Shown: positions 842 through 46,745, counted from the first letter of the stretch. The stretch is 64,000 bases of DNA from Candidatus Aenigmatarchaeota archaeon (GCA_014238095.1 JABABT010000025.1:39460-103459); one strand, 5' to 3'. Made by a program: numbers and translations. Notes: generated by a model not told the origin, from the letters alone.

Positions 842-1218
842 AAATTATTTAATAAATTGAACTTTTTTTCTTTCTTCATATATTTTTTTCAATTATTTTT
901 TTGAAGTTGAAGTATCAAATTTACAAGTATATGTATTAATTAAGTTTTTTCTAAATGATAAATGTTGAGAGTCAGTAAAAATATATTCAATATTTTTATT
1001 TTCTAATTTTTTTGGTTTTTTTTATTAGATGGATTTTGTAATTTAAATAGTTTTTTATTTGTTTTTTCATTTTTTAATTTCTTATATAAAATACGTTGTT
1101 GATTTAAATGTTTTTTTTTCATTTAATGGTTTCATTCCAATTTTTTCAATATATTCTTTTATTTCCATAAATAAACAAATGATATGAAGATATTTAAAAT
1201 TATTAAACAATTTTTAAT

Positions 1219-1497
1219 ATGTCAATAACTCCTAAAAATCTTGTTAAACATGAATTAATTGGACTTGAAGTTAAAATTATTGAATCAAAAAATTCTCTTA
1301 ATGAAATAAGTGGTAGAGTTGTTGATGAAACTTATAGTACGTTTATTATTGATATAAAAGGAAAGGATAAAGTTATGATTAAGAAAGATTGTATTTTTTT
1401 ATTTATATTACCAGACAAAAAAAAAGTACAGGTAAATGGAAAAGTAATTATTGGCCGTCCAGAAGATAGAATAAAGAAAAAAAATGTGAAATGGTGA
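1219..1497 (+). CDS. rnp1: RNase P protein component 1 (Rpp29/Pop4)
   Basis: 92 aa with a HELIGLEVKII..SGRVVDETYSTFII motif typical of Rpp29. Placement between L29/SUI1 and S17 is conserved in archaea. Confidence 0.65.
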   Translation: MSITPKNLVKHELIGLEVKIIESKNSLNEISGRVVDETYSTFIIDIKGKDKVMIKKDCIFLFILPDKKKVQVNGKVIIGRPEDRIKKKNVKW

Positions 1498-1645
1498 ATT
1501 TTTTATATTAAAAATCAATTTTATACTAATTTAATAAAAATTATTAATTTTTAAATTTTGTATTAAAAATAACTAATTTTTATATTTAGACACAAAGCCT
1601 ATCGACTCAAAATCTTTTTAAACATACTTTTCAAATGAAATATCT

Positions 1646-1987
1646 ATGAATAACAATGCAAGATATATAGGAATTGATGTTAATAAACCAAAAGAAGATT
1701 GTGAAGATAAAAAATGTCCATTTCATGGTAAATTACCTGTTAGAGGAAATATAATTAAAGGGAAGGTTATATCTTCTAAATCCCAAAAAACAGTTGTAAT
1801 TGAAAAAGATTACACTCAATGGATTCCAAAATATCAAAGATATGAAAGAAGGCATTCTAGAATATCTGCATATAATCCAAATTGTATAGCAGCGAAAGAA
1901 GGAGATTTAGCTATTATAGCCGAATGTAGACCTTTGAGTAAAACAAAATCTTTTGTTGTTATTGAAAAAACAAGTAAAGGTGAATAA
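1646..1987 (+). CDS. rps17: 30S ribosomal protein S17 (uS17)
   Basis: 113 aa with a GKVISSKSQKTVVIE OB-fold motif. It is adjacent to rpl14. Confidence 0.85.
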   Translation: MNNNARYIGIDVNKPKEDCEDKKCPFHGKLPVRGNIIKGKVISSKSQKTVVIEKDYTQWIPKYQRYERRHSRISAYNPNCIAAKEGDLAIIAECRPLSKTKSFVVIEKTSKGE

Positions 1988-1990
1988 AAA

Positions 1991-2389
1991 ATGAAAGCAA
2001 TTAAAGCAAGAATAAATAAATCATTAAATGTTGGATCAAGAATTAATTGTGCAGATAATACTGGTGCAAAAATAATTGAAATTATTTCAGTTGGAGGTTA
2101 TCATGGAGTTAAAAATAGACAACCTTTAGCTGGTGTTGCTTCTAAAATTAGAGTTACTGTTAAGGAAGGTAATGCAAAATCAAGACATCAAATGTTTGAT
2201 GCAGTTATTATAAGACAAAAACAAGAATATAGGAGAAAAAATGGAACAAGAGTTTCTTTTGAAGATAATGCTGCTATTATTACTGATGAAACTGGATCCC
2301 CAAAAGGAACTGAAATTAAAGGACCAGTTGCAAAAGAAGCAATTGAAAGATTTTCTACAATAGGAAAAATATCTACAATAATTGTGTGA
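1991..2389 (+). CDS. rpl14: 50S ribosomal protein L14 (uL14)
   Basis: 132 aa carrying the CADNTGAK hallmark. Confidence 0.9.
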   Translation: MKAIKARINKSLNVGSRINCADNTGAKIIEIISVGGYHGVKNRQPLAGVASKIRVTVKEGNAKSRHQMFDAVIIRQKQEYRRKNGTRVSFEDNAAIITDETGSPKGTEIKGPVAKEAIERFSTIGKISTIIV

Positions 2390-2781
2390 TAAAAATGATG
2401 TGTGCTCATTTATCAAAAGAATTAAGAAACCAATATAATAGAAGATCAATTGGTGTTAGAAAAGGAGATGAAGTTAAAATAATGCGTGGAAAATTTAAAG
2501 GAAAAACTGCAACAATTGAAGAAATTAATAATAAAAAAGGTAATATATTCTTATCCGGAATTAAATTAAAAAAAACAGTAGGAACAGAAAAACAAGTCCC
2601 AATAAAATCAATTAATGTTGTTGTTATAAATATGAATTTAAATGATAAAAAAAGGAGAGATATACTTTTAAGAAAAGTTAAAGAAGTAAAAATACCTATT
2701 AAAAAAACTGAGCAAATAAAACCAAAAATAGAAAAAAATGAAATTAAAGAACCAAAAGTTCAAAAATCTCCATCTAAATAA
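2386..2781 (+). CDS. rpl24: 50S ribosomal protein L24 (uL24), KOW domain, Lys-rich C-terminal extension
   Basis: KGDEVKIMRGKFKGKT KOW motif. A 4-nt overlap with rpl14 indicates translational coupling. Confidence 0.85.
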   Translation: MIKMMCAHLSKELRNQYNRRSIGVRKGDEVKIMRGKFKGKTATIEEINNKKGNIFLSGIKLKKTVGTEKQVPIKSINVVVINMNLNDKKRRDILLRKVKEVKIPIKKTEQIKPKIEKNEIKEPKVQKSPSK

Positions 2782-2787
2782 TAAAAT

Positions 2788-3495
2788 GTGATACAAATGC
2801 ACTTAAAAAGAATAAAAGCACCAAAATTTTGGAAAATTCCAAGAAAAGAATTAACTTGGACTGTATCTACAAGACCAGGTCCTCATAAAAAACTCGAATC
2901 AATTCCTTTACAAATTTTAATTAGAGATATATTAAATATAGTTGATATAGCAAAAGATGTAAGAAAGATTGTAAATAAAGAAAATATTTTAATTGATGGT
3001 AAAATAAGAAAAGATTATGCTTATGGTGTTGGATTATTTGATGTTATATCAATTCCGAAATTGAAGAAGAATTATAGAGTAGTTCCAACATCTAAATTTA
3101 GAAGTGTTATTGAAATTTCTGATCAAGAATCAAAGAAGAAAATTTGTAAAATAATTAATAAAACAACAATTCAAAATGGAAAAACACAATTAAATTTACA
3201 TGATGGAAAAAATATTTTAATAGATGATAAAAAATACAAAACTGGAGATACAATAATAATTGAAATTCCTTCAATGAAAATTATTGATCATATTCCTTTA
3301 GAAAAAGGTGTAGTTGGTATAATTACAAAAGGAAATCAGGCTGGTCTAATTGGAACATTAAAAGAAATTAAAAAAGCGAGTTCACGTGAAGCTGCAAATG
3401 TTATTTGTGAATTTGATGGAAATAAACAAACTATATTGAAAGATAGATTTTTTGTTGTTGGTAAAACAAAACCAGTAATAAAAATAGGTGAATAA
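2788..3495 (+). CDS. rps4e: 30S ribosomal protein S4e (eS4)
   Basis: MHLKRI.APK.WKIPRKE..W.V...PGPH N-terminus typical of S4e. Confidence 0.85.
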   Translation: MIQMHLKRIKAPKFWKIPRKELTWTVSTRPGPHKKLESIPLQILIRDILNIVDIAKDVRKIVNKENILIDGKIRKDYAYGVGLFDVISIPKLKKNYRVVPTSKFRSVIEISDQESKKKICKIINKTTIQNGKTQLNLHDGKNILIDDKKYKTGDTIIIEIPSMKIIDHIPLEKGVVGIITKGNQAGLIGTLKEIKKASSREAANVICEFDGNKQTILKDRFFVVGKTKPVIKIGE

Positions 3496-18432: not shown

Positions 18433-18525
18433 AATAATTATATTTATTTTATATATAATTATATTTATTTTATATATAATTAATTTATTAAACTAATAAA
18501 ATAATTCATAATTGAGCCCAAGTAG

Positions 18526-18627
18526 TTGAGCCTGGTTAAAACGCCGCGCTCATAGTCTCTATGAGCTTCGACGCAAGGATGAGATAAGAAACGCGGAGGT
18601 CCGGGAGTTCAAATCTCCCCTTGGGCA
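18526..18627 (+). tRNA. tRNA(CAU) with ~36-nt intron after the anticodon loop (Met elongator or Ile2)
   Basis: Acceptor GCCCAAG/CTTGGGC, anticodon stem CCGCG/CGCGG, loop CTCATAG with anticodon CAT, T-arm GGGAG-TTCAAAT-CTCCC. Inserted sequence GTCTCTATGAGCTTCGACGCAAGGATGAGATAAGAA begins with a segment complementary to the anticodon loop (BHB-like). CCA is not encoded. Confidence 0.75.
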
Positions 18628-21192: not shown

Positions 21193-21203
21193 GTGACCGC
21201 CAA

Positions 21204-22758
<1,555 letters not shown>

Positions 22759-24413: not shown

Positions 24414-24476
24414 TATAAATTTATTATATAAATTTAAATATAACTTTATTAATTAATAATAATTAAATATTTTTAT

Positions 24477-24550
24477 GGGCCGGTAGTTAAGCTCGGTATA
24501 ACGCCCGCTTTGCAAGCGGGAGGCCACGGGTTCAAATCCCGTCCGGTCCA
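24477..24550 (+). tRNA. tRNA-Ala (UGC)
   Basis: Acceptor GGGCCGG/CCGGTCC with a G3:U70 identity pair. Anticodon stem CCCGC/GCGGG, loop TTTGCAA, T-arm ACGGG-TTCAAAT-CCCGT, discriminator A. CCA is not encoded. Confidence 0.85.
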
Positions 24551-24588
24551 TATATAACCTTTTTCTTATGAAAACATAATATAATACA

Positions 24589-29898: not shown

Positions 29899-33155
<3,257 letters not shown>

Positions 33156-38089: not shown

Positions 38090-39289
38090 TTAGTTTTTCT
38101 TATTAAAATTTTTTGCTAATTCATGAATCAATTTTCTTACATTTTCCCGCATATCATTTATTTCTTTTTCAGATATTTTATGTAATTTATGTTCTTTAGA
38201 AAGTTTCTTCAATATTTCTATTCTATCCCAAATTTCTAAATAATATGGTTCTATAATTTTAGAATCAATAAAATATTTTTTAAATCCATCTTTTAATGAA
38301 ATATTTATTTTCTTTAAAACTACTTCATTATCTGTATCTTCTGGTAAATTAATTATTTTTTTCAAAGAAGTTATAATGGCCTTTTCCATAACATTATGTG
38401 TTCTATCTAAAATTTTTTCCTTTTTTCTCATTTCCAATGCATTTAATAAATTAAACATTTTATCAATGTATTTTTCTGATTTTTCTAACCATTCATCTAC
38501 AAAAGATCCTGAAACATTTATAATTTTTTTATGTTCTATTTCTTTTCTTATATTTATAATTTCTTTTAACCATTCTGCATATTCTGGTTCAAGTATACCA
38601 GAATCTACTAAATATTTTTTAACTTCTTCATATGCTTTATTAGGAACAGGTGGTTCAAATCCCATAAACATTAAAACAGCTTGTGAAGTGTTTAACATTG
38701 CATAATAAGAATCTTCAGCAAGCATTAACAATTTAACTGTTTTTGCACGCATAATTTTTTTTGGAGCACTTTCCATATAACTTTCTATTGCTTCTCTAGT
38801 TGATGGAATTTTACCCATATTTAAAAGTTTTTTAATCGGTTCAAAAAAACCAGTATCATATATAGGAATTCCTTCTTTAATAAAATTATAAATTATTGGA
38901 TGAGCTACTCTAGCATAATCCCAAAATTCTGTAAGAGTATATGTTGGTTGAACAGATAACAAATTAATTTTTTCTGATTTTCCATTTGGTAATTTTTTAT
39001 TAATTTTTGATTCAGGTATTTTTTCAGAAATATTTTCTAAATCTTCATCAATTTTATTTTTAATATCTTCATTCATTTCCATTGAAGTATCATCAATTAT
39101 AACAAAAACATCTATATCACTAATTTCTTTAAATTCTTTTCTAGCAACAGAACCCATCATTACAATTGCTTTAATTTTATTACCATATTTTTTTAAAACT
39201 TCTTTTGAGAATTTTTTAACAATTTCAATTCTTCTATCTATAGATTTTGAAACTTCTTTAGATTTTAATTCATTCTTTTTTTTTGGCAT
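38090..39289 (-). CDS. Pol-beta superfamily nucleotidyltransferase with long helical C-terminal domain (paralog 1)
   Basis: MMGSVARKEFKEISDIDVFVIIDD = GS-x10-DxD NTase core. The C-terminal ~250 aa is alpha-helical. Shares the PTYTLTEFWDY..HP.IYNF...G.PIYDTGF block with the adjacent gene. Confidence 0.6.
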   Translation of the reverse strand: MPKKKNELKSKEVSKSIDRRIEIVKKFSKEVLKKYGNKIKAIVMMGSVARKEFKEISDIDVFVIIDDTSMEMNEDIKNKIDEDLENISEKIPESKINKKLPNGKSEKINLLSVQPTYTLTEFWDYARVAHPIIYNFIKEGIPIYDTGFFEPIKKLLNMGKIPSTREAIESYMESAPKKIMRAKTVKLLMLAEDSYYAMLNTSQAVLMFMGFEPPVPNKAYEEVKKYLVDSGILEPEYAEWLKEIINIRKEIEHKKIINVSGSFVDEWLEKSEKYIDKMFNLLNALEMRKKEKILDRTHNVMEKAIITSLKKIINLPEDTDNEVVLKKINISLKDGFKKYFIDSKIIEPYYLEIWDRIEILKKLSKEHKLHKISEKEINDMRENVRKLIHELAKNFNKKN

Positions 39290-40150
39290 TTATTCATCTT
39301 CCTTTGGTAAATCTTCTCCAAGAACTTCTTTAGGAATTAATTTAATAAATCTATCAATTATTTCACGTGATAATTTCAAAGATTTTTCTAAATAAACTGA
39401 ATTTACATCTTTTATTATTTTATGATCAATATCTTTCCACATTTTATTCATATCTTTAAATTTTTTAACCCATTCTTTTTCAAGTTTTTTTTCACTTACA
39501 AATTTTTCTAAAAATTTTGGTATATCTTTGAAATCTGGTTGTTCTTTATAATGATGCATAACAGATGCTTGAATTATATCACTTGCACAATATCTTAATT
39601 CAAATATCATAGATTTCATATCAATTTTTACTTTTCTATATCTAGCTTCTGCAGCATGTGCCCTTATTGATATTGTTTCTTCGCTTGGTGGTAGAAGACC
39701 CATTTTTAACATTCTTTGTACTGGTTTAATAAAACCACTATCATAAATTGGAAGTCCGTATCTTAGAAAATTAACCAATTCTGGAGATCCTATTTTAATC
39801 CAGTGCCAAAATTCTGTTAATGGGGTTGTTTGAACATGAACATCTTTCAAATTATGAGCAATTAAAAGTATATTATGTTGAACTTTTTCAATATCTTCAG
39901 ATCCTTTAGTAGAAGTATCATCTAAAACTACCCAAACATCAGCATCACTTGTCTTAATAGCATCTCCTCTTACAATTGAACCAAATAAAAGAACTGATTT
40001 TATTACATCTCCATATTGTTTACGAGCTTCATTTGTGAATTTTACAACCCTTTTCATAACTTCTTCCTTATTCATAAAACTATCTGACTTAATATTTGGT
40101 TTTATTATTGATGTATCTTTTAATTCTTCCTCTAATTTATCAAAAACCAT
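39290..40150 (-). CDS. Pol-beta superfamily nucleotidyltransferase with helical C-terminal domain (paralog 2)
   Basis: LLFGSIVRGDAIKTSDADVWVVLDD NTase core. TPLTEFWHW..SPELVNFLRYGLPIYDSGF is paralogous to 38090-39289. Adjacent with a 0-nt gap. Confidence 0.6.
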   Translation of the reverse strand: MVFDKLEEELKDTSIIKPNIKSDSFMNKEEVMKRVVKFTNEARKQYGDVIKSVLLFGSIVRGDAIKTSDADVWVVLDDTSTKGSEDIEKVQHNILLIAHNLKDVHVQTTPLTEFWHWIKIGSPELVNFLRYGLPIYDSGFIKPVQRMLKMGLLPPSEETISIRAHAAEARYRKVKIDMKSMIFELRYCASDIIQASVMHHYKEQPDFKDIPKFLEKFVSEKKLEKEWVKKFKDMNKMWKDIDHKIIKDVNSVYLEKSLKLSREIIDRFIKLIPKEVLGEDLPKEDE

Positions 40151-40228: not shown

Positions 40229-40939
40229 ATGAAAGCTGTCATTTTATCTGCTGGTTTAAGTATTAGAATGAGGGAAATTAAAGGTATTGATGAACAAAAA
40301 ACTATGATAAAATATTCTGAAAAACCACTTCTACAAAGAAATATAGAAATTATTAGAGATAATGGTATAAAGGATATAATTATTGTAGTTAATTATATGA
40401 AAAATGTTATTAAAAATTATTTTGGAAATGGGGAAAAATTTAATGTTAATATTGAATATGTTGAACAAGAAAATCCTAAAAAAGGTACAGCAAATGCCGT
40501 ATTATGTGTTGAAAGTAAAATAAATAATAATTTTCTTCTAATTTATGGGGATAATGTTTTTGATTCTAAAATTATTAGTAATATATTAAAAATTAATGAT
40601 TGTGATGGTGTATTATGTGTTAAAAATCTTGAAAATCCAAAAAATTTTGGTGTTATTAAAACTGATGGGGAAAATGTGAAGGAAATAATTGAAAAACCGG
40701 AAAAAATAATAAGTAATCTTGCATTAACGGGTATTTTTATTTTACCTATAGAAATATTTGAATCTATTAAAAAAACTAAAATATCAAAACGTGGTGAATA
40801 TGAACTTCCAGAATCAATTCAAATTTTGATTAATGAAGGTTTTAAATTTAAATTTATTGAAATTGATAATTATTGGTTTGATCCAAGAAATGAAGAAGAA
40901 ATTAATGAAATAAATTTATTATTAAAATTAAATCATTAA
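40229..40939 (+). CDS. sugar-phosphate nucleotidyltransferase (NTP_transferase/GlmU-RmlA-like)
   Basis: MKAVILSAGLSIRM N-terminal G-rich loop and a LIYGDNVFD motif. Confidence 0.6.
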   Translation: MKAVILSAGLSIRMREIKGIDEQKTMIKYSEKPLLQRNIEIIRDNGIKDIIIVVNYMKNVIKNYFGNGEKFNVNIEYVEQENPKKGTANAVLCVESKINNNFLLIYGDNVFDSKIISNILKINDCDGVLCVKNLENPKNFGVIKTDGENVKEIIEKPEKIISNLALTGIFILPIEIFESIKKTKISKRGEYELPESIQILINEGFKFKFIEIDNYWFDPRNEEEINEINLLLKLNH

Positions 40940-41090: not shown

Positions 41091-43202
41091 TTAAGTTAAT
41101 TCTGATTTTTTAAATTCTTCTGGTCTCTTACCTTTATCTAATGCCGATTTACTTAAGAAAGTATGTTCTTCTTCTGGTACTGCAAGTAATCCTTTTAATG
41201 GGTCCCAATAATGTTCATGCATTGTTTCTAATTGTTTTTCAACAGAATATATTCCATCTGAAGAAACTCCAAAAAATTTCAATGGAAGATTTTCTGGTAA
41301 TGTATCTTTCTTTAATTGTTCCACTATTAACCTAATTGAAATAACAGATTGACCTAAAAATTCCCCAGGTAATTTACCTCCTCCTCTTTCAAACATAATT
41401 ATACCTTTATTTTCTCCCATACCATAACCTTTTTTTCTCATATTATATGCATATACATAAATCCATCTTTGTGCTTCACTACCAACATCAATTGTATCAT
41501 GACCAGGTGCATAAGTTTTAGGATTACCAACATGAAGTCCATAAAAATCTTTTAAAGCATCATCATCTAAAGATTTAAATTCATCTAATGGATTCAATCC
41601 ATTATGTAGATAATGTTCAATATCAACCCAACCTAAAATATATTTAGTATTATGAACTGATTTAAAAGCTTTAATTAATTTATGAATATCTTTTAAATGA
41701 ATAATTCTTTGTAAACCTTCCATTTGTTCTCCAAGTGGATCTGGATTTTCAAATGTTATGAATATTTTAAGTTGATTTATTTTTTCTAAAGCTGTTTTCT
41801 TATAGAAAGAATCAAGTTTTTGATATTTTAAATCTTCATCTCCAAAATTTTCTACTCTATGATGAATAAATTCAGTTAAATTTGGTCTTTCAAAATGACC
41901 CATAATGTAACGAGCAGCTACCATTGCAACTATATTTGGCATAAGATTAACAATACCACGTTTTTCATCCCAAAGTTTTCTTTCATTATCTCCTGTGTTT
42001 GATATTTTCCAATCTTGTTCTAAATTCTCCATTGATTTACCTTTAAAATATAAATTCCATAATGGTTCTTTAGTATTATCTTTCTGATATTCTAAATATT
42101 TAGCAATTATAGCATATGCAAAATCTTCTTTTTCTATTACACCTCTTGATTTTCTTGTTTGTGTTAAATCAAGCCATTTATCAAACATAAAATCATTAAT
42201 TACATTAACAATTTCATTATCATCAAACTCTGATTCAAAATAATCATTAACCATTTCATTAATGGATAAAGATTGAAATGATTCAATTTTACTATGATTT
42301 ATATTTGATAAATTTTCTTGTTCTTGTTTAAGTTTTTGTATTCTTTCATTTAACTCTTTATAACTTATTTCTCTTTTAGATATGTTTTTATCTGTTATAT
42401 ATTCTTCATCTATTTTTTGTGGTTTTTGATTTTCAATTTGTAATTGATTAGAAATTTCTTTTAATCTTTTATTATTTTTTTCTATTATTTCTCTATGTTT
42501 CTTAATATATTTTTCTAACTTTTCTATAATTTTTCTTGATTTTTTTTCTTTATCAATTTCTTTTTCTTGAAATGCATGTACAATTAATTGCTTTATTAAA
42601 TGTCTTTTATCCCATGGAGCAAAACCTGCAACTTCTGCAAAAAGATATTTTAAAATAGTTTTTTGAAACCAAGATTTAAGTTTTTTATTTTCATTTAATA
42701 ATTTTTCCCAATTTTCAAAACCTCTGAAATCATTTTGAATTTGTCCCTGATATTTATATCTCTCTGCAAGAAGTCCAATTGGATGAATATTAGAAACATG
42801 AAAATTTATATATTCTGGTTTATATTTTGTGTAATCTTTATCTTTTTGATTTGGTTGTCCTTTATTTTTAATAAAATAATCATAAATACCATCAAGATAT
42901 TGATGAAGTCTAATATGAGATTGTTTCCAAATAACTTCTATTCCACTTTCCCATGCCATTAATGAATTAATTTCTCCATGTGCACCCCATCTTATATTAA
43001 GATCTTCTGTAACTTGTCTTATTCTTTCTAAAACATCTGGTTCAACAAATTCAGAAGTATTTTCAAAATCAACTTGAATATAACTTGCACCAGTAGTTGC
43101 AGCTGTTGCTATTTTTTGTGCTACTCCAAGTAGTCCTTTATCTTGAGCAATTTTATGCCAACCACTTGTAATTCCAACTTCATAATTTTCTCCATATCCC
43201 AT
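41091..43202 (-). CDS. large hypothetical protein (703 aa) with central K/E-rich coiled coil and paired GYGEN/GYGMGEN motifs
   Basis: Long ORF with strong coding character. No recognisable catalytic or NTP-binding motif. Confidence 0.6.
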   Translation of the reverse strand: MGYGENYEVGITSGWHKIAQDKGLLGVAQKIATAATTGASYIQVDFENTSEFVEPDVLERIRQVTEDLNIRWGAHGEINSLMAWESGIEVIWKQSHIRLHQYLDGIYDYFIKNKGQPNQKDKDYTKYKPEYINFHVSNIHPIGLLAERYKYQGQIQNDFRGFENWEKLLNENKKLKSWFQKTILKYLFAEVAGFAPWDKRHLIKQLIVHAFQEKEIDKEKKSRKIIEKLEKYIKKHREIIEKNNKRLKEISNQLQIENQKPQKIDEEYITDKNISKREISYKELNERIQKLKQEQENLSNINHSKIESFQSLSINEMVNDYFESEFDDNEIVNVINDFMFDKWLDLTQTRKSRGVIEKEDFAYAIIAKYLEYQKDNTKEPLWNLYFKGKSMENLEQDWKISNTGDNERKLWDEKRGIVNLMPNIVAMVAARYIMGHFERPNLTEFIHHRVENFGDEDLKYQKLDSFYKKTALEKINQLKIFITFENPDPLGEQMEGLQRIIHLKDIHKLIKAFKSVHNTKYILGWVDIEHYLHNGLNPLDEFKSLDDDALKDFYGLHVGNPKTYAPGHDTIDVGSEAQRWIYVYAYNMRKKGYGMGENKGIIMFERGGGKLPGEFLGQSVISIRLIVEQLKKDTLPENLPLKFFGVSSDGIYSVEKQLETMHEHYWDPLKGLLAVPEEEHTFLSKSALDKGKRPEEFKKSELT

Positions 43203-43206
43203 ATTA

Positions 43207-44967
43207 TCACTTCATATTCATTGCAGCTGATTTGAAATAACCAACTGCTGGACCATAAAAATTTTGTGCAATTGTTTTCATTGTTATTGAAGTTATTCTA
43301 TCCATAAATGTTGAATCATATGGTCCACTTCTTGAAAATCTTATATTATTTTGTTTCCAACTTCTATTTGTCATTTGTTTTGGATTTATCAAATTATTTG
43401 GTTTTTGTTTTTTATTATTCATACCATAAAGATTTGGATACTCATCTTCCTTAATTATATCTTCAATTTTCTTTCCCTCTTCAGTGTCTCCAATTATATC
43501 AGTAATATGATTTTTTAGTTCTTTTTCTTGTAAAATTTTTTCTAATTCACGAATAATCATTACATTTTGTGTGTCAAAACATGCAACAAATGGATGATCA
43601 GGAAAACTACCAATAATAAAAGTTTCACCTTCTTTACCTGTTGGTGATCTTGTTACAACTCTAAATGTCTCAACTTCAAATGTAATAAAATAAGGACTTG
43701 GTACCCAATCCCATCTATTATATTCTTTGAATTTTTCTTCTAGATTCTTTCTAGCCTGCATTATATCTACCACATTAAGAGAAGATTTGTATTTATATTT
43801 TCCTTGATAATGTTTAACAAGTTTATCTGTTAAGAACATTACCCAATCATCAACTGGTTCTATTCCAGATGGAAATGTTGAAATAGTTTCATATTTTCCA
43901 CTAACATCAGAATTATTTTTCATTATTTCTTTCAAATTTTCTTTTAACATTTTAGGTAAATTTGATTTCATTAAAAGTTGTTTCTCTTCATATATTTGTA
44001 TTGGAGGTTTATCAAATCCTGGAGGATTAAAACTTCTCCATAACCAATATTCAGCCATATCAATTGAAACTGCTTGTGTTGAAGGTCTCCACCAATTAAA
44101 ACTATTAAGAATTGATGCTCCATCTTCTGTTTCACCAAATTCATGAATCATTTTATGTCTAAGTACAAATGGTCTAACCATTCTTCTATATTCCTTAATT
44201 GATTTTTTTCTTGATGCAACAAGTTCTTTCAAATGATGATATCTACTCATAACAGTTTCTTTAAATCTTTTTTTCCATTGTTGATAAATTTTATTTTTTG
44301 TTGAAAGTACAACACCTTCTGATTGAGAAAATTGATATTTTTCTGCTATTTTATTTGGATCTAAATCATTATCATCAAGACGCATAAAATCAACAATTAT
44401 TGTTGGCCATCTTGGTGCTATTAATTTTAATGCAACACCTTCACCAGTATGAACATCAACATGATCAATGAAAAGTGATTTCAAAGTTTGATTATGTCTT
44501 TTTTCTTCTTCTTTATTTTTTGATTTGGATGCTTTTTCTATTTCTTCAAAATAATGCATATATTCTTTATATCTTCTTATATCATGAGACAAAAGTTCAT
44601 AATCAGATATTGAAGATTGAATACTTGCAAGAGACTGTTTAATTTGTTGTTCCATATTTTGTTTTTGTTGTACAGTTACCTGATAATATTGTGAATGTAT
44701 AGGTGAAATTTCAATTCTTTCTTGAATTTTATCTACATGAAATCCTTGTTTTCTCATATTCCATAAAAATCCCATAAAAATATCATTACCTTTTCCTAAA
44801 TTTGTATCAATAAATATTTGTGTTCTTGCATTTGGTGGACCAATATGCGCAATTTCACCTGGAACAAATCCTTTAATTGGACCATCTCCAGGACCCTTAC
44901 CAAGTATAGATGGTAGTCCTTCACTACCTTTTTTATCATCTGAATATTTTCCACTTACAAAACTCAT
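43207..44967 (-). CDS. large hypothetical protein (~586 aa from MSFVSGKY; track extends to 45042)
   Basis: Long ORF whose proposed start overlaps the stop of the upstream 57-aa ORF by 4 nt (ATGA). No recognisable domain. Confidence 0.55.
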   Translation of the reverse strand: MSFVSGKYSDDKKGSEGLPSILGKGPGDGPIKGFVPGEIAHIGPPNARTQIFIDTNLGKGNDIFMGFLWNMRKQGFHVDKIQERIEISPIHSQYYQVTVQQKQNMEQQIKQSLASIQSSISDYELLSHDIRRYKEYMHYFEEIEKASKSKNKEEEKRHNQTLKSLFIDHVDVHTGEGVALKLIAPRWPTIIVDFMRLDDNDLDPNKIAEKYQFSQSEGVVLSTKNKIYQQWKKRFKETVMSRYHHLKELVASRKKSIKEYRRMVRPFVLRHKMIHEFGETEDGASILNSFNWWRPSTQAVSIDMAEYWLWRSFNPPGFDKPPIQIYEEKQLLMKSNLPKMLKENLKEIMKNNSDVSGKYETISTFPSGIEPVDDWVMFLTDKLVKHYQGKYKYKSSLNVVDIMQARKNLEEKFKEYNRWDWVPSPYFITFEVETFRVVTRSPTGKEGETFIIGSFPDHPFVACFDTQNVMIIRELEKILQEKELKNHITDIIGDTEEGKKIEDIIKEDEYPNLYGMNNKKQKPNNLINPKQMTNRSWKQNNIRFSRSGPYDSTFMDRITSITMKTIAQNFYGPAVGYFKSAAMNMK

Positions 44968-45137
44968 GTAAACACCAAAATACCTATACCTAATGCTACC
45001 ATAATGAAACCAATTAATATTCCAGTATATGAAAATTGCCATGATTGATATTCAGATACTTGAGGAAATATTAAAACCATACCAAGTCCTCCAAGTATTA
45101 ATAGTCCTCCAATTGTTGCTGTTATTAAATCTGGCAT
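44964..45137 (-). CDS. small 2-TM membrane peptide (MPDLITATIGGLLILGGLGMVLIF...), hand-derived
   Basis: 57-aa ORF found by hand in a frame different from the track ORF. Two hydrophobic helices, translationally coupled to the next gene. Confidence 0.4.
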   Translation of the reverse strand: MPDLITATIGGLLILGGLGMVLIFPQVSEYQSWQFSYTGILIGFIMVALGIGILVFT

Positions 45138-45207
45138 AAAATCACTAAAATTAATAGGGAATTAAGAAATTTAAAAGGAATATAAATGTTAAAAACTATT
45201 AAATTTT

Positions 45208-45735
45208 ATGCCTATATTCGCAAAAAACAAAATTACTATTGAAGAGGATTGTTTACTACCATCTCCAAAAATTTGGATGAGTTATTCTGGACCAAACCCA
45301 CATAAGGCTTATGGTAAAATAACAGAAATTTTAAAAAATAATTTAAAATTTAAAAATGAAAATATTCAAGAAAGAGAATTTAAATGGGATAGATCAAATG
45401 TAGTAGAAAAATTTTCTGGTTCTATTGAAGCTTTTAAAGATTTTGATAAATTCACTTACATAATGGCATTTATAGATTTTAGTGGAAATGTAAAACCTAG
45501 TAAAGAGTTTGGGAAAGTTGGTGACTTAAAAGTTGAAATTGATGGTTATATTAGAACAGATTATCCACAAGATACAGTTTGGGAAAGAAGTCTTTTTTAC
45601 GAAGTTATTAGATCTTTTTGGCATAAATTTTTCTATCAAAAAGAAAGATATGCTTTCAAGGAAAGATGTCGTAATATATTATTAGTTGTTCAAAAAGAAT
45701 TGAAAACTTATTTTGATATATTACCAAAGAGTTGA
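45208..45735 (+). CDS. hypothetical protein, paralog A of a tandem pair
   Basis: Shares GPNP, FKWD/FRWD and LKVEIDGYIRTD/LKIEIHGFIETD blocks with the next gene. Confidence 0.5.
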   Translation: MPIFAKNKITIEEDCLLPSPKIWMSYSGPNPHKAYGKITEILKNNLKFKNENIQEREFKWDRSNVVEKFSGSIEAFKDFDKFTYIMAFIDFSGNVKPSKEFGKVGDLKVEIDGYIRTDYPQDTVWERSLFYEVIRSFWHKFFYQKERYAFKERCRNILLVVQKELKTYFDILPKS

Positions 45736-45739
45736 TTGA

Positions 45740-46315
45740 ATGCCAGTTGCAGATTGGAAATCATATCATTTTCCTACAAAAATTAGAGATGAGATACCTA
45801 AAAATAGAGATGAAATTGTAATAGAATATAAAGGACCTAATCCAATAAAAATTTATAAAAATCTTACAAACATGTGTAAAAGAATATGGGAAGTTAAAGG
45901 AACTCAAATGTATGAACCTGATTTTAGATGGGATACTACATCAGATCCTCATGCTTTCTTTTTCCAAATTTATGTACAAAAGGGTATGGATAAATTTACT
46001 AAATATAGAGTTGACATAAAAATGAAAGGTTCCCAACCAAATGATCCTAAAAATAATGGTGAATTAAAAATTGAAATACATGGATTTATAGAAACAGATT
46101 TTAGTAGTTTTCTTGGAGATAAATTTGGAACTCCTGAACAAAAACTGAAAGCTGGTGTTATGAATATTATTTGGCCTATGATGTATTATCCATTTATGAA
46201 AGGTTATTATAATCCACTTAGAAGAAGATATTTTATTTATCATAGAAGAAGAATTGAAAGACTTGCAAATGAAATGAGGGCCATGCTTAATATACCTCTA
46301 AAACCATTATCATAA
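45740..46315 (+). CDS. hypothetical protein, paralog B of a tandem pair
   Basis: Paralogous to 45208-45735. C-terminal basic tail RRRYFIYHRRRIERL. Confidence 0.5.
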   Translation: MPVADWKSYHFPTKIRDEIPKNRDEIVIEYKGPNPIKIYKNLTNMCKRIWEVKGTQMYEPDFRWDTTSDPHAFFFQIYVQKGMDKFTKYRVDIKMKGSQPNDPKNNGELKIEIHGFIETDFSSFLGDKFGTPEQKLKAGVMNIIWPMMYYPFMKGYYNPLRRRYFIYHRRRIERLANEMRAMLNIPLKPLS

Positions 46316-46316
46316 T

Positions 46317-46745
46317 ATGAAACTTTCATCAATTTTTGGTATATTTAAAAAAAAGAAAATAATAGAAGATGAAGAAGATTTTTCTATATTAGGTCTAAAA
46401 AAACCTGAAATGAAAATGCCAAAAAATGAAGATGATGAAAATAAAATTACTCCTTTTCCAGTTTATGAAAATCCAGATACAAGTAAAATGATGAATGATA
46501 AACCAACAGACATAATGACTATGCCTAAAATGGAAGTAATGAAAACACCTGAAATGAAAATGCCAAAAAATGAAGATGATAATCAAGAAAAAATTAAATC
46601 AAAAATTGAATTAATTTCTAGTCATATTGAAAATATAAAAATTCAACAAGATGTAATGAATAATAAAATTACAAATATAGAAGATTTATTGAAAAAATTA
46701 ATTTCTATTACCATAAATAATATTGATTCAAATAATAGAGAATAA
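46317..46745 (+). CDS. hypothetical repeat protein (2x PEMKMPKNEDD) with C-terminal coiled coil
   Basis: The 33-nt DNA repeat cctgaaatgaaaatgccaaaaaatgaagatgat occurs at 46404 and 46548. The start overlaps the previous stop. Confidence 0.45.
   Translation: MKLSSIFGIFKKKKIIEDEEDFSILGLKKPEMKMPKNEDDENKITPFPVYENPDTSKMMNDKPTDIMTMPKMEVMKTPEMKMPKNEDDNQEKIKSKIELISSHIENIKIQQDVMNNKITNIEDLLKKLISITINNIDSNNRE

Follow-up and report, generated by a model that had tools for sequence, protein, structure and literature searches.

A conserved gene cluster of Aenigmatarchaeota encodes a predicted metalloenzyme of the endonuclease IV type, a partner with a novel predicted fold, and a small membrane peptide

We analysed a cluster of six genes, at positions 41091-46745 of a 64,000-nucleotide stretch of DNA (the window) from a Candidatus Aenigmatarchaeota archaeon (GCA_014238095.1 JABABT010000025.1:39460-103459). 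The cluster is lineage-specific: it is found in the Aenigmatarchaeota and in a few neighbouring lines of DPANN archaea. Its largest protein, C703, is modelled as a TIM barrel of the xylose-isomerase-like superfamily, and its invariant residues resemble the metal site of endonuclease IV (Endo IV). Our preferred interpretation, for which we see the balance of probability as about even, is that the cluster encodes a membrane-tethered, lineage-specific multiprotein assembly around an Endo IV-type metallo-phosphoesterase, C703.

Calling open reading frames (ORFs) in the window returned all six genes at exactly the coordinates of an original prediction, which was made by a model from the DNA alone. 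Three of the genes lie on the minus strand. In the order of transcription, they encode TM57 (44964-45137), a peptide of 57 amino acids (aa) that is predicted to form a hairpin of two transmembrane (TM) segments; B586 (43207-44967, 586 aa); and C703 (41091-43202, 703 aa). The genes for TM57 and B586 overlap by ATGA, as had been described (the plus strand reads tcat at 44964-44967 in the raw sequence), and the stop codon of B586 is indeed 4 nt from the start codon of C703. B586 begins at the second ATG of a 611-aa ORF; its homologues start at the same methionine, which supports this start. The other three genes are on the plus strand and encode the paralogs P175 (45208-45735, 175 aa) and P191 (45740-46315, 191 aa), followed by R142 (46317-46745, 142 aa). 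P191 and R142 had been described as having a start/stop overlap, which was an error: the stop codon of P191 ends at 46315 and R142 starts at 46317, which leaves a 1-nt spacer. The AT-rich region of 70 bp between the two sets of genes (45138-45207) is presumably the site of both promoters. By eye, there are TATA-like strings about 24-30 nt upstream of both start codons, which is weak evidence in a genome with 24% GC. The divergent layout around this region is retained in relatives, and the genes of the module are probably co-regulated.

The arrangement of these genes is conserved. We searched 88 related loci by tblastn with the window proteins and found B586 in all 88, C703 in 79, P175 in 83 (always divergent from B586), and P191 in 81 (in each case immediately after P175). 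Because tblastn does not pick up the short genes, which are too divergent, we sought them by position. The relative positions and strands of the module's genes are constant across these loci, and most of the absences are due to the ends of contigs. An arrangement that recurs in this way at 88 loci, with identity falling to about 30%, goes far beyond chance. Gene calls at four independent contigs, where the homologues are as little as 35% identical to the window protein, gave a peptide of about 55 aa, proteins of about 590 and 610 aa, and, on the divergent side, two proteins of about 175 aa each and then one of 84-136 aa. The original prediction had named a lack of synteny outside this genome as a reason to discard the module, and the opposite was found. 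Its other reason was a confident profile match of the large proteins to well-known housekeeping enzymes, and our profile searches gave no such match. That prediction described five genes, and these do belong to a conserved unit, but the unit was drawn too narrowly: a pair of nucleotidyltransferase (NTase) genes lies downstream of the C703 homologue, on the same strand, in 63 of the 88 loci, and the association extends to a distant lineage.

A scan of GTDB with one genome per species found 183 loci. Among the 80 of these 183 that were listed, every locus with a named phylum was from the Aenigmatarchaeota, and the rest were labelled "uncultured archaeon" except for one "bacterium". For B586, we found at least 194 homologues, and for C703, we found 27 close homologues of about 600-620 aa. 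Where named, these are hypothetical proteins of Candidatus Aenigmarchaeota/Aenigmatarchaeota, except for two contigs filed under bacteria. A profile search for the B family (the homologues of B586) against 1.84 billion cluster representatives returned only 234 proteins. The named outliers were ex4484_52, one partial "Nanohaloarchaea" contig, and a divergent branch that is still labelled Aenigmatarchaeota. So the original prediction was right that the module is lineage-specific. The window itself is archaeal, with an archaeal small subunit (SSU) rRNA at 21203-22758 and a large subunit (LSU) rRNA at 29906-33147.

Members of the B family and of the paralog family of P175 and P191 are also present on a contig labelled Kosmotogaceae bacterium (P0122, P0200), and one locus (L028) is labelled "bacterium isolate clean1851". 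Because the distribution is otherwise strictly Aenigmatarchaeota, these contigs are probably mis-binned archaeal sequences. Separately, one metagenome-assembled genome, JAWCME01 (JZ-2_201705_bins_269), has two full copies of the module (L011 and L020), whose B proteins are 45% and 37% identical to B586 from the window. An NTase pair accompanies each copy, and a YchF-like GTPase is a neighbour of at least one. A bin that mixes two populations is a more likely explanation than a true duplication.

The orphan proteins could point to a mobile element, a virus, or an anti-phage defence island, and the domains of the neighbouring NTases resemble MNT/HEPN-type defence components. But none of the six window proteins had a match above noise in Pfam, NCBIfam, PHROGs, or PADLOC, and the B family has neither a fold match in BFVD nor a relative in 2.9 million viral contigs. 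Also, the module has the same chromosomal context, beside housekeeping genes, across the phylum. Its GC content (23-28%) shows no compositional anomaly relative to the window, which is around 24% GC throughout. These observations effectively refute a defence or mobile island, and we give that explanation next to no credence.

The evidence for an enzyme comes from C703. Its AlphaFold2 (AF2) model (pLDDT 76.9, pTM 0.78) has exactly eight beta strands that alternate with helices (residues 7-12, 41-45, 71-75, 131-135, 481-485, 522-527, 553-558, and 600-604), which is the (beta/alpha)8 barrel of the xylose-isomerase-like superfamily (PF01261, AP_endonuc_2). Strands 1-4 are within residues 7-135 and strands 5-8 are within residues 481-604, so the earlier suggestion of one globular fold that is split by a large helical insertion fits the model. 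In comparisons to known structures, the C703 model scored 22.1 against D-allulose 3-epimerase (5zfs), 21.3 against IolI (1i6n), 20.4 against Endo IV from E. coli (1qtw), 20.0 against Endo IV from T. maritima (2x7w), 15.3 against MbnB (7fc0), and 13.8 against UVDE (2j6v). Sequence models also place the C family (the homologues of C703) in this superfamily: PF01261 matched 16 of 44 diverse orthologues at E <= 0.01, with a best E value of 8.4e-15. For example, the orthologue from the complete genome CP066684.1 matches PF01261 with 55.6 bits (the cut-off is 31.1) and matches a hidden Markov model of the C family with E = 4.5e-43.

The insertion is helical, comprises about 330 residues, and follows strand 4. 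The original prediction had described a huge helical insertion with a K/E/Q-rich coiled coil of about 150 residues. The insertion does contain a K/E/Q-rich segment (residues 205-332 are 40% K, E, or Q and are modelled as long helices), but just part of it is a variable coiled coil, and the rest is a conserved helical domain. Residues 166-216 and 329-470 (approximately) are conserved, while the variable middle has 140 residues in the window's C703 and 16-123 residues in its relatives, in an alignment of 93 sequences. Because only this middle part varies, the coiled coil appears to be largely a lineage-specific elaboration. Its exit point from the barrel, after strand 4, is on the catalytic face, and the insertion would therefore be expected to cap the active site. 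The GYGEN/GYGMGEN and other motifs that had been quoted for C703 are present, but the "paired" GYGEN and GYGMGEN are not conserved in the family, so we rejected the idea that the pair reflects an internal duplication of C703.

After the barrel is a conserved extension of about 90 residues. The last 40 residues or so (41091-41190 in the window; consensus PEEEYTFxSKAAxxKGKKPEEWKKEELR) have very low model confidence, yet they are among the best conserved parts of the protein. Short linear motifs that dock onto a partner typically combine these two features.

At about 30 positions, the residue is conserved in at least 95% of the 93 C sequences. These include H75, H135, E485, D527, H530, H557, H568, E605, R606, and G607. 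Others are in the cap domain (such as Y363, W382, Y432, G435, and H436) or in the C-terminal extension (such as Q657, H664, P668, E677, and E678), or look structural. In the model, eight of the conserved residues are at the ends of strands 3-8 and are putative metal ligands. E485, D527, H557, and E605, at the ends of strands 5-8, are invariant or nearly so and match the ligand pattern of the superfamily; they are predicted to bind metal. With high confidence, we predict from alignments and the model that C703 is an active metalloenzyme of the xylose-isomerase-like superfamily.

The eight putative ligands also resemble those of Endo IV (Nfo; 1QTW, 2X7V, 6KHY) specifically. By strand position, H75, H135, E485, D527, H530, H557, H568, and E605 correspond to H69, H109, E145, D179, H182, H216, H231, and E261 of E. 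coli Nfo. (We took the sequence of Nfo from the E. coli K-12 genome and checked the residue numbering against it.) Together with D229, these are the nine established Zn ligands of Nfo (PDB 1QTW). So C703 has His, His, Glu, Asp-x-x-His, His, His, and Glu at the ends of strands 3-8, which is the order of eight of the nine Zn ligands; the register for these eight positions is from weak alignments. A search of PDB with a first profile of the C family, built from 27 sequences, gave no useful match. A profile from a more diverse alignment gave six weak matches, and the top three were Endo IV-type AP (apurinic/apyrimidinic) endonucleases, with the ligand motifs aligned. The same ligand columns are invariant in canonical Endo IV-like proteins of 263 aa from Aenigmatarchaeota, when aligned with Nfo. 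With moderate confidence, given these alignments and the model, the site of C703 appears to be polynuclear, as in Endo IV, and not mononuclear, as in the epimerases; it is probably bi- or trinuclear.

C703 differs from Endo IV in its architecture. Endo IV is a compact, single-domain enzyme of about 285 aa that cleaves DNA at AP sites; C703 is more than twice as large, has the helical insertion with its coiled-coil arm and the C-terminal extension, and is encoded with a novel-fold partner and a TM peptide. C703 also illustrates how an insertion of 330 residues can mask an Endo IV-like barrel from routine annotation.

Another possibility is that C703 is a sugar, polyol, or inositol isomerase or epimerase that takes part, at the membrane, in the metabolism of envelope glycans or lipid head groups, and that the neighbouring NTases nucleotidylylate hydroxyls of its small-molecule substrate. 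The invariant residues of C703 include the E-D-H-E ligand quartet of such enzymes, and characterised relatives of these NTases modify sugar hydroxyls. Also, in the window and in close relatives, a gene for a sugar-1-phosphate NTP_transferase adjoins C703. But this gene is a neighbour in just 5 of the 88 loci, and sequence profiles reach only Endo IV-family structures, not the ketose 3-epimerases or IolI (5ZFS, 1I6N). Unlike those enzymes, C703 has a large insertion and partner proteins, and it has H530, H568, H75, and H135 as further invariant residues. H75 and H135 are at positions on strands 3 and 4 that hold metal ligands in Endo IV but are not known to do so in ketose epimerases, and we counted this against an isomerase. 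Overall, an isomerase seems improbable.

C703 could also be compared to the multinuclear-iron oxidases (MNIOs; DUF692), such as MbnB and TglH, which modify peptides. Under this explanation, TM57 would be the substrate, B586 the partner, and C703 the oxidase. MNIOs are TIM barrels of this superfamily, depend on a partner protein, and have a polynuclear site with a similar pattern of His, Asp, and Glu ligands, and the gene order of a small peptide, a partner protein, and a TIM barrel resembles the operons of MbnABC and TglHI. However, MNIO structures score well below Endo IV and epimerases against C703, the C family has no match to DUF692 (Pfam gave only PF01261), and C703 has D-x-x-H on strand 6, as in Endo IV. 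TM57 has no cysteine and no leader/core layout, and is instead a conserved hairpin with two TM segments. The cluster occupies a fixed, core locus across the phylum, unlike a sporadic biosynthetic island. Many of the organisms that carry the module live in anoxic habitats, which we also counted against an MNIO. We consider this explanation most unlikely, and we rejected an assignment to the ribosomally synthesized and post-translationally modified peptides (RiPPs) because of the lack of a DUF692 match, the Cys-free peptide with two TM segments, and the phylum-wide locus.

The AF2 model of B586 (pLDDT 78, pTM 0.73) has two alpha+beta sandwich domains and very long helices of nearly 60 residues each (92-148 and 215-273). 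Its isoelectric point (pI) is 9.0. No fold match was found in PDB, nor in BFVD with Foldseek; the lower-ranking matches are a mixture of small TBP-, KA1-, SRPBCC-, and Mog1-like domains, and show only generic alpha+beta sandwiches. Similarly, the B family has no profile match in PDB and no Pfam match among 41 diverse members. As modelled, the fold and architecture of B586 are novel. The most conserved motifs are HDLRKY, FIDQVDVHTGEG, and RWPTIIxDF.

TM57 is the only protein of the six that is predicted to span the membrane. Its hydrophobic segments are at residues 3-28 and 33-57, which bears out the description of a 57-aa peptide with two TM segments; the other five proteins have no such segments, and none of the six has a signal peptide. 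At about 62 of 72 loci, a peptide of similar size (about 53 aa) is encoded upstream of the B homologue; it too has two TM segments, with (D/E)YQP as a conserved loop. A membrane-proximal location for the assembly is plausible.

P175 and P191 are paralogs, as predicted, with 34% identity over 99 residues (E = 1e-13). Both are basic (pI of 9.0 and 9.6, respectively). P175 is an orphan by sequence, and we found little for the family as a whole: there was no profile match in PDB, no consistent Pfam family among 62 members that were scanned singly, and no relation to B or to C by hhalign, and a profile search returned only hypothetical proteins from Aenigmatarchaeota. The pair is specific to the main branch of the Aenigmatarchaeota.

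R142 and its counterparts downstream of P191 share a three-part architecture, which is seen in over 50 loci. The N-terminus is hydrophobic and polybasic, with a consensus of MGIFSxxKKKK; in relatives of R142, it has a moderate amphipathic moment (0.36-0.57). This is followed by a proline-rich linker that varies freely and then by a conserved coiled-coil helix of about 45 residues (NLKAKIDLxLTQxDSLKxQYExLNERIxNIEKMVKEIYxMAKS). The two copies of PEMKMPKNEDD that had been noticed in R142 are both in the translation, and they lie in the linker that varies between species. Searches with the R142 family gave only generic coiled-coil matches, both in PDB (by profile) and in Pfam (37 members were scanned).

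The original prediction had guessed at a cytoskeletal, surface, or host-interaction module. A related explanation is a structural, cytoskeletal, or membrane-remodelling module, with the TIM barrel as a non-catalytic scaffold. Both of the large proteins have long helical arms. Also, the N-termini of the coiled-coil adaptors look as if they could bind membranes and, by eye, resemble the first helix of PspA/ESCRT-III. In ex4484_52, a weak Snf7-like gene (E = 0.62) is near the B homologue. But there is no Snf7, PspA, tubulin, or actin signal in the six proteins, and neither R142 nor B586 has the Snf7 or PspA profile match or the helical-hairpin core of ESCRT-III or PspA-Vipp1 proteins. Furthermore, across the 93 sequences, the putative metal ligands of C703 rank with its best conserved residues, which argues for catalysis. 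A cytoskeleton is not indicated, and we think that a structural module is very unlikely. Among the rival explanations, this one and the mobile or defence island are the least compatible with the data.

The Snf7-like gene (L094, 6815-7381) is two genes upstream of B in ex4484_52 and encodes a helical protein of 188 aa that starts with MFKFLRKK. The weak match to Snf7 (ESCRT-III) is full-length, as it covers positions 5-158 of the 171 in the model. ESCRT is generally described as absent from DPANN archaea (PMC10117752). By hhalign, the R142 family is not related to this protein.

The NTases that lie downstream of C703 are KNTase-like (they belong to the Pol-beta superfamily). In the window, they are encoded by two adjacent genes on the minus strand (38090-40150; 286 and 399 aa), with matches to PF01909 and PF18765, and the closest solved relative is kanamycin nucleotidyltransferase. 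In the main branch, the median gap from the stop codon of C to the start codon of the first NTase is 67 nt, and the gap is at most 250 nt in 43 of 56 loci. The NTase pair is probably part of the functional unit and would act in the same pathway. In the 399-aa NTase (38090-39289), there is an R-x4-H string, RKEIEH, in the C-terminal helical part, which by eye is like the HEPN motif. There is a similar string, RKAVEH, in the C-terminal helical part of the 470-aa NTase from CP066684.1 (L092, 11181-12590), also by eye.

We asked whether a phosphoesterase always follows the NTase pair, and it does not. The slot is occupied by AP_endonuc_2 in 9 loci, by a metallophosphoesterase in 2, and by other genes in 12, and there is no same-strand ORF in 40. 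Several Aenigmatarchaeota also encode a canonical Endo IV-like protein (PF01261) of 263 aa, with all of the Nfo ligand columns conserved, a few genes downstream of the module (at 12142-12942 in L003 and 14870-15661 in L005; also in L010, L053, L060, L065, L068, and L074). There is no such gene within the 64-kb window.

Another explanation is that the proteins form a soluble complex for repairing or processing nucleic acids. C703 would be a specialised AP endonuclease or 3'-diesterase with a coiled-coil arm as in Rad50 or SMC proteins, and B586 and the basic paralogs would be the DNA- or RNA-binding subunits. End processing would be completed by the downstream NTases and a phosphoesterase, with the TM peptide as an incidental neighbour. 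The Endo IV-type ligand set fits this explanation, as does the prominence of Endo IV among the profile matches. So do the basic pI values of B586, P175, and P191 (9.0-9.6), the conserved NTase neighbours, the metallophosphoesterase or AP_endonuc_2 gene that follows the NTases at some loci, and the presence of Trm1 downstream in CP066684.1. On the other hand, the TM peptide is conserved and translationally coupled to B586, and membrane proteins precede B in distant lineages. Several genomes already have the canonical Endo IV-like gene nearby, and Pfam and other family scans found no DNA- or RNA-binding domain by sequence. We consider a soluble repair complex unlikely.

Distant lineages show which parts of the cluster recur. 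In the complete genome CP066684.1 (L092), the order is three membrane proteins, a B protein of 409 aa, a C protein of 617 aa (Grx-TIM617), an NTase of 470 aa, and Trm1. At another locus (L096), the gene that comes after a 500-aa B protein encodes 160 N-terminal residues that align to C, H75 and H135 among them (75.6% probability in hhalign). Upstream are a two-TM peptide of 64 aa and, by eye, three divergent genes with a layout like that of R142. In ex4484_52 (L094), B is preceded by the weak Snf7-like protein and a multi-TM protein. So multi-TM genes precede B in both L092 and L094. Given these layouts, the recurrent core seems to be a membrane protein and B, usually C, and often an NTase and R142-like adaptors.

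Two of these lineages have further peculiarities. The C orthologue of CP066684.1 (L092, 9263-11116) has an N-terminal glutaredoxin-like domain (PF00462, E = 3.4e-10), which is presumably redox-inactive because it lacks CxxC (it has DDSLS instead). The L096 lineage is divergent and possibly halophilic, and it lacks the P175/P191 pair and has multiplied the adaptor type: the three consecutive genes at 1137-3152 (219, 122, and 233 aa) each encode a C-terminal helix that is preceded by a long disordered linker and, at the N-terminus, a short motif.

Under our preferred interpretation, C703 would be the catalytic subunit, with a His/Asp/Glu-rich metal site of the Endo IV type. The metal centre would activate a water molecule, which would cleave a phosphodiester or a phosphomonoester. 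Our first guess for the substrate is a nucleic acid end or lesion, and our second guess is a membrane-proximal phosphodiester. The conserved helical domain would cap the active site and set the specificity, and the variable coiled-coil arm might project outwards. B586, with its long helical arms, would be an obligatory partner, either as a scaffold or to bind the substrate. TM57 would tether the complex to the membrane, on the cytoplasmic side; we propose this role because TM57 is coupled to B and conserved, and because its position is taken by membrane proteins in distant lineages. P175 and P191, from the divergent operon, are probably a heterodimer of basic paralogs. R142 may be a small adaptor that uses its coiled-coil helix to contact the arms of B or C. 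The KNTase-like enzymes and C703 probably share a substrate. What the data show is the genes, their constant order, their restriction to these lineages, and the fold and invariant residues of C703; metal binding, hydrolysis, assembly into a complex, attachment to the membrane, and the connection to the NTases are inferred.

Several results weigh against this interpretation. The sequence similarity to Endo IV is marginal: the best profile matches of the C family in PDB are to the AP endonuclease from African swine fever virus (6khy, E = 0.0083) and to the enzyme from T. maritima (2x7v, E = 0.18). When the C family is compared by hhalign to E. coli Nfo and to the archaeal Endo IV-like proteins, the probability is under 1%, which is not significant, although the alignment places E485, D527, H530, H557, and H568 in register. 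C703 from the window has no match to PF01261 at E <= 1 and reaches no Pfam threshold. There is no conserved counterpart of D229 of Nfo: the equivalent position in C703, 572, is variable (D in 35, E in 28, and P in 20 of 93 sequences). In the window, a convergent gene for a sugar-phosphate NTP_transferase (40229-40939) separates the NTases from C703, and it is likewise inserted between C and the NTases in the closest relatives. In ex4484_52, the B homologue has no adjacent C gene. Finally, we infer physical association from the co-occurrence of the genes, and housekeeping neighbours, such as a YchF-like GTPase, are syntenic as well, so some of the co-occurrence could follow from gene order being conserved in general in such small genomes.

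The assembly appears to be new. Our literature searches found no description of this operon. Aenigmarchaeota are known to have lineage-specific families (Module 128) that fully lack functional predictions, many of which are predicted to be membrane-bound (Castelle et al. 2021, PMC8204110), but that study treats the families in aggregate, and we found no description of the operon, the fold of C703, or the gene order. C703 is a new and highly derived family within a known superfamily. That the assembly as a whole is new follows from its matching no described system, and this partly reflects negative sequence searches for the small subunits. P175, P191, and R142 were compared to other proteins by sequence only, and relatives at the level of the fold may yet appear.

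Aenigmatarchaeota are uncultivated DPANN archaea with small genomes, and their biology is known almost wholly from annotation; this locus is one of the blind spots. Because it is near-universal in the sampled members of the phylum, with a fixed order and strong conservation, it is likely to be important for the cells. Conserved operons without an assigned function are common in DPANN, and this one offers a testable enzyme, a partner with a novel fold, and conservation across a phylum. With one subunit now assigned as a predicted metal-dependent enzyme with candidate catalytic residues, the system can be tested. If there is a membrane-tethered phosphoesterase, then it bears on how these symbionts process or salvage phosphodiester-linked material.

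A bolder version, which we find doubtful, is that the six genes and the two NTases form a previously unknown membrane-bound machine that is confined to the Aenigmatarchaeota and their closest relatives. In it, the scaffold and the TM peptide would hold the Endo IV-type metalloenzyme at the membrane. The machine would process material that the symbiont is unable to make, either host-derived nucleic acids for nucleotide salvage or phosphodiester-linked lipid or glycan precursors. It would then be a defining and probably essential innovation in the cell biology of the phylum, and at least three of its protein folds would be new to structural databases.

The window also has some features away from the cluster. 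The SSU and LSU rRNA genes are unlinked: they are about 7 kb apart, with a tRNA-Ala (24476-24551) and protein-coding genes between them. The match to the LSU rRNA spans 3242 nt while the model has 2987 positions, so there may be an insertion or an intron. At 18516-18627, Rfam matches a tRNA (52.5 bits) that was not reported by ARAGORN, and the length of the match, 112 nt, suggests an intron-containing archaeal tRNA.

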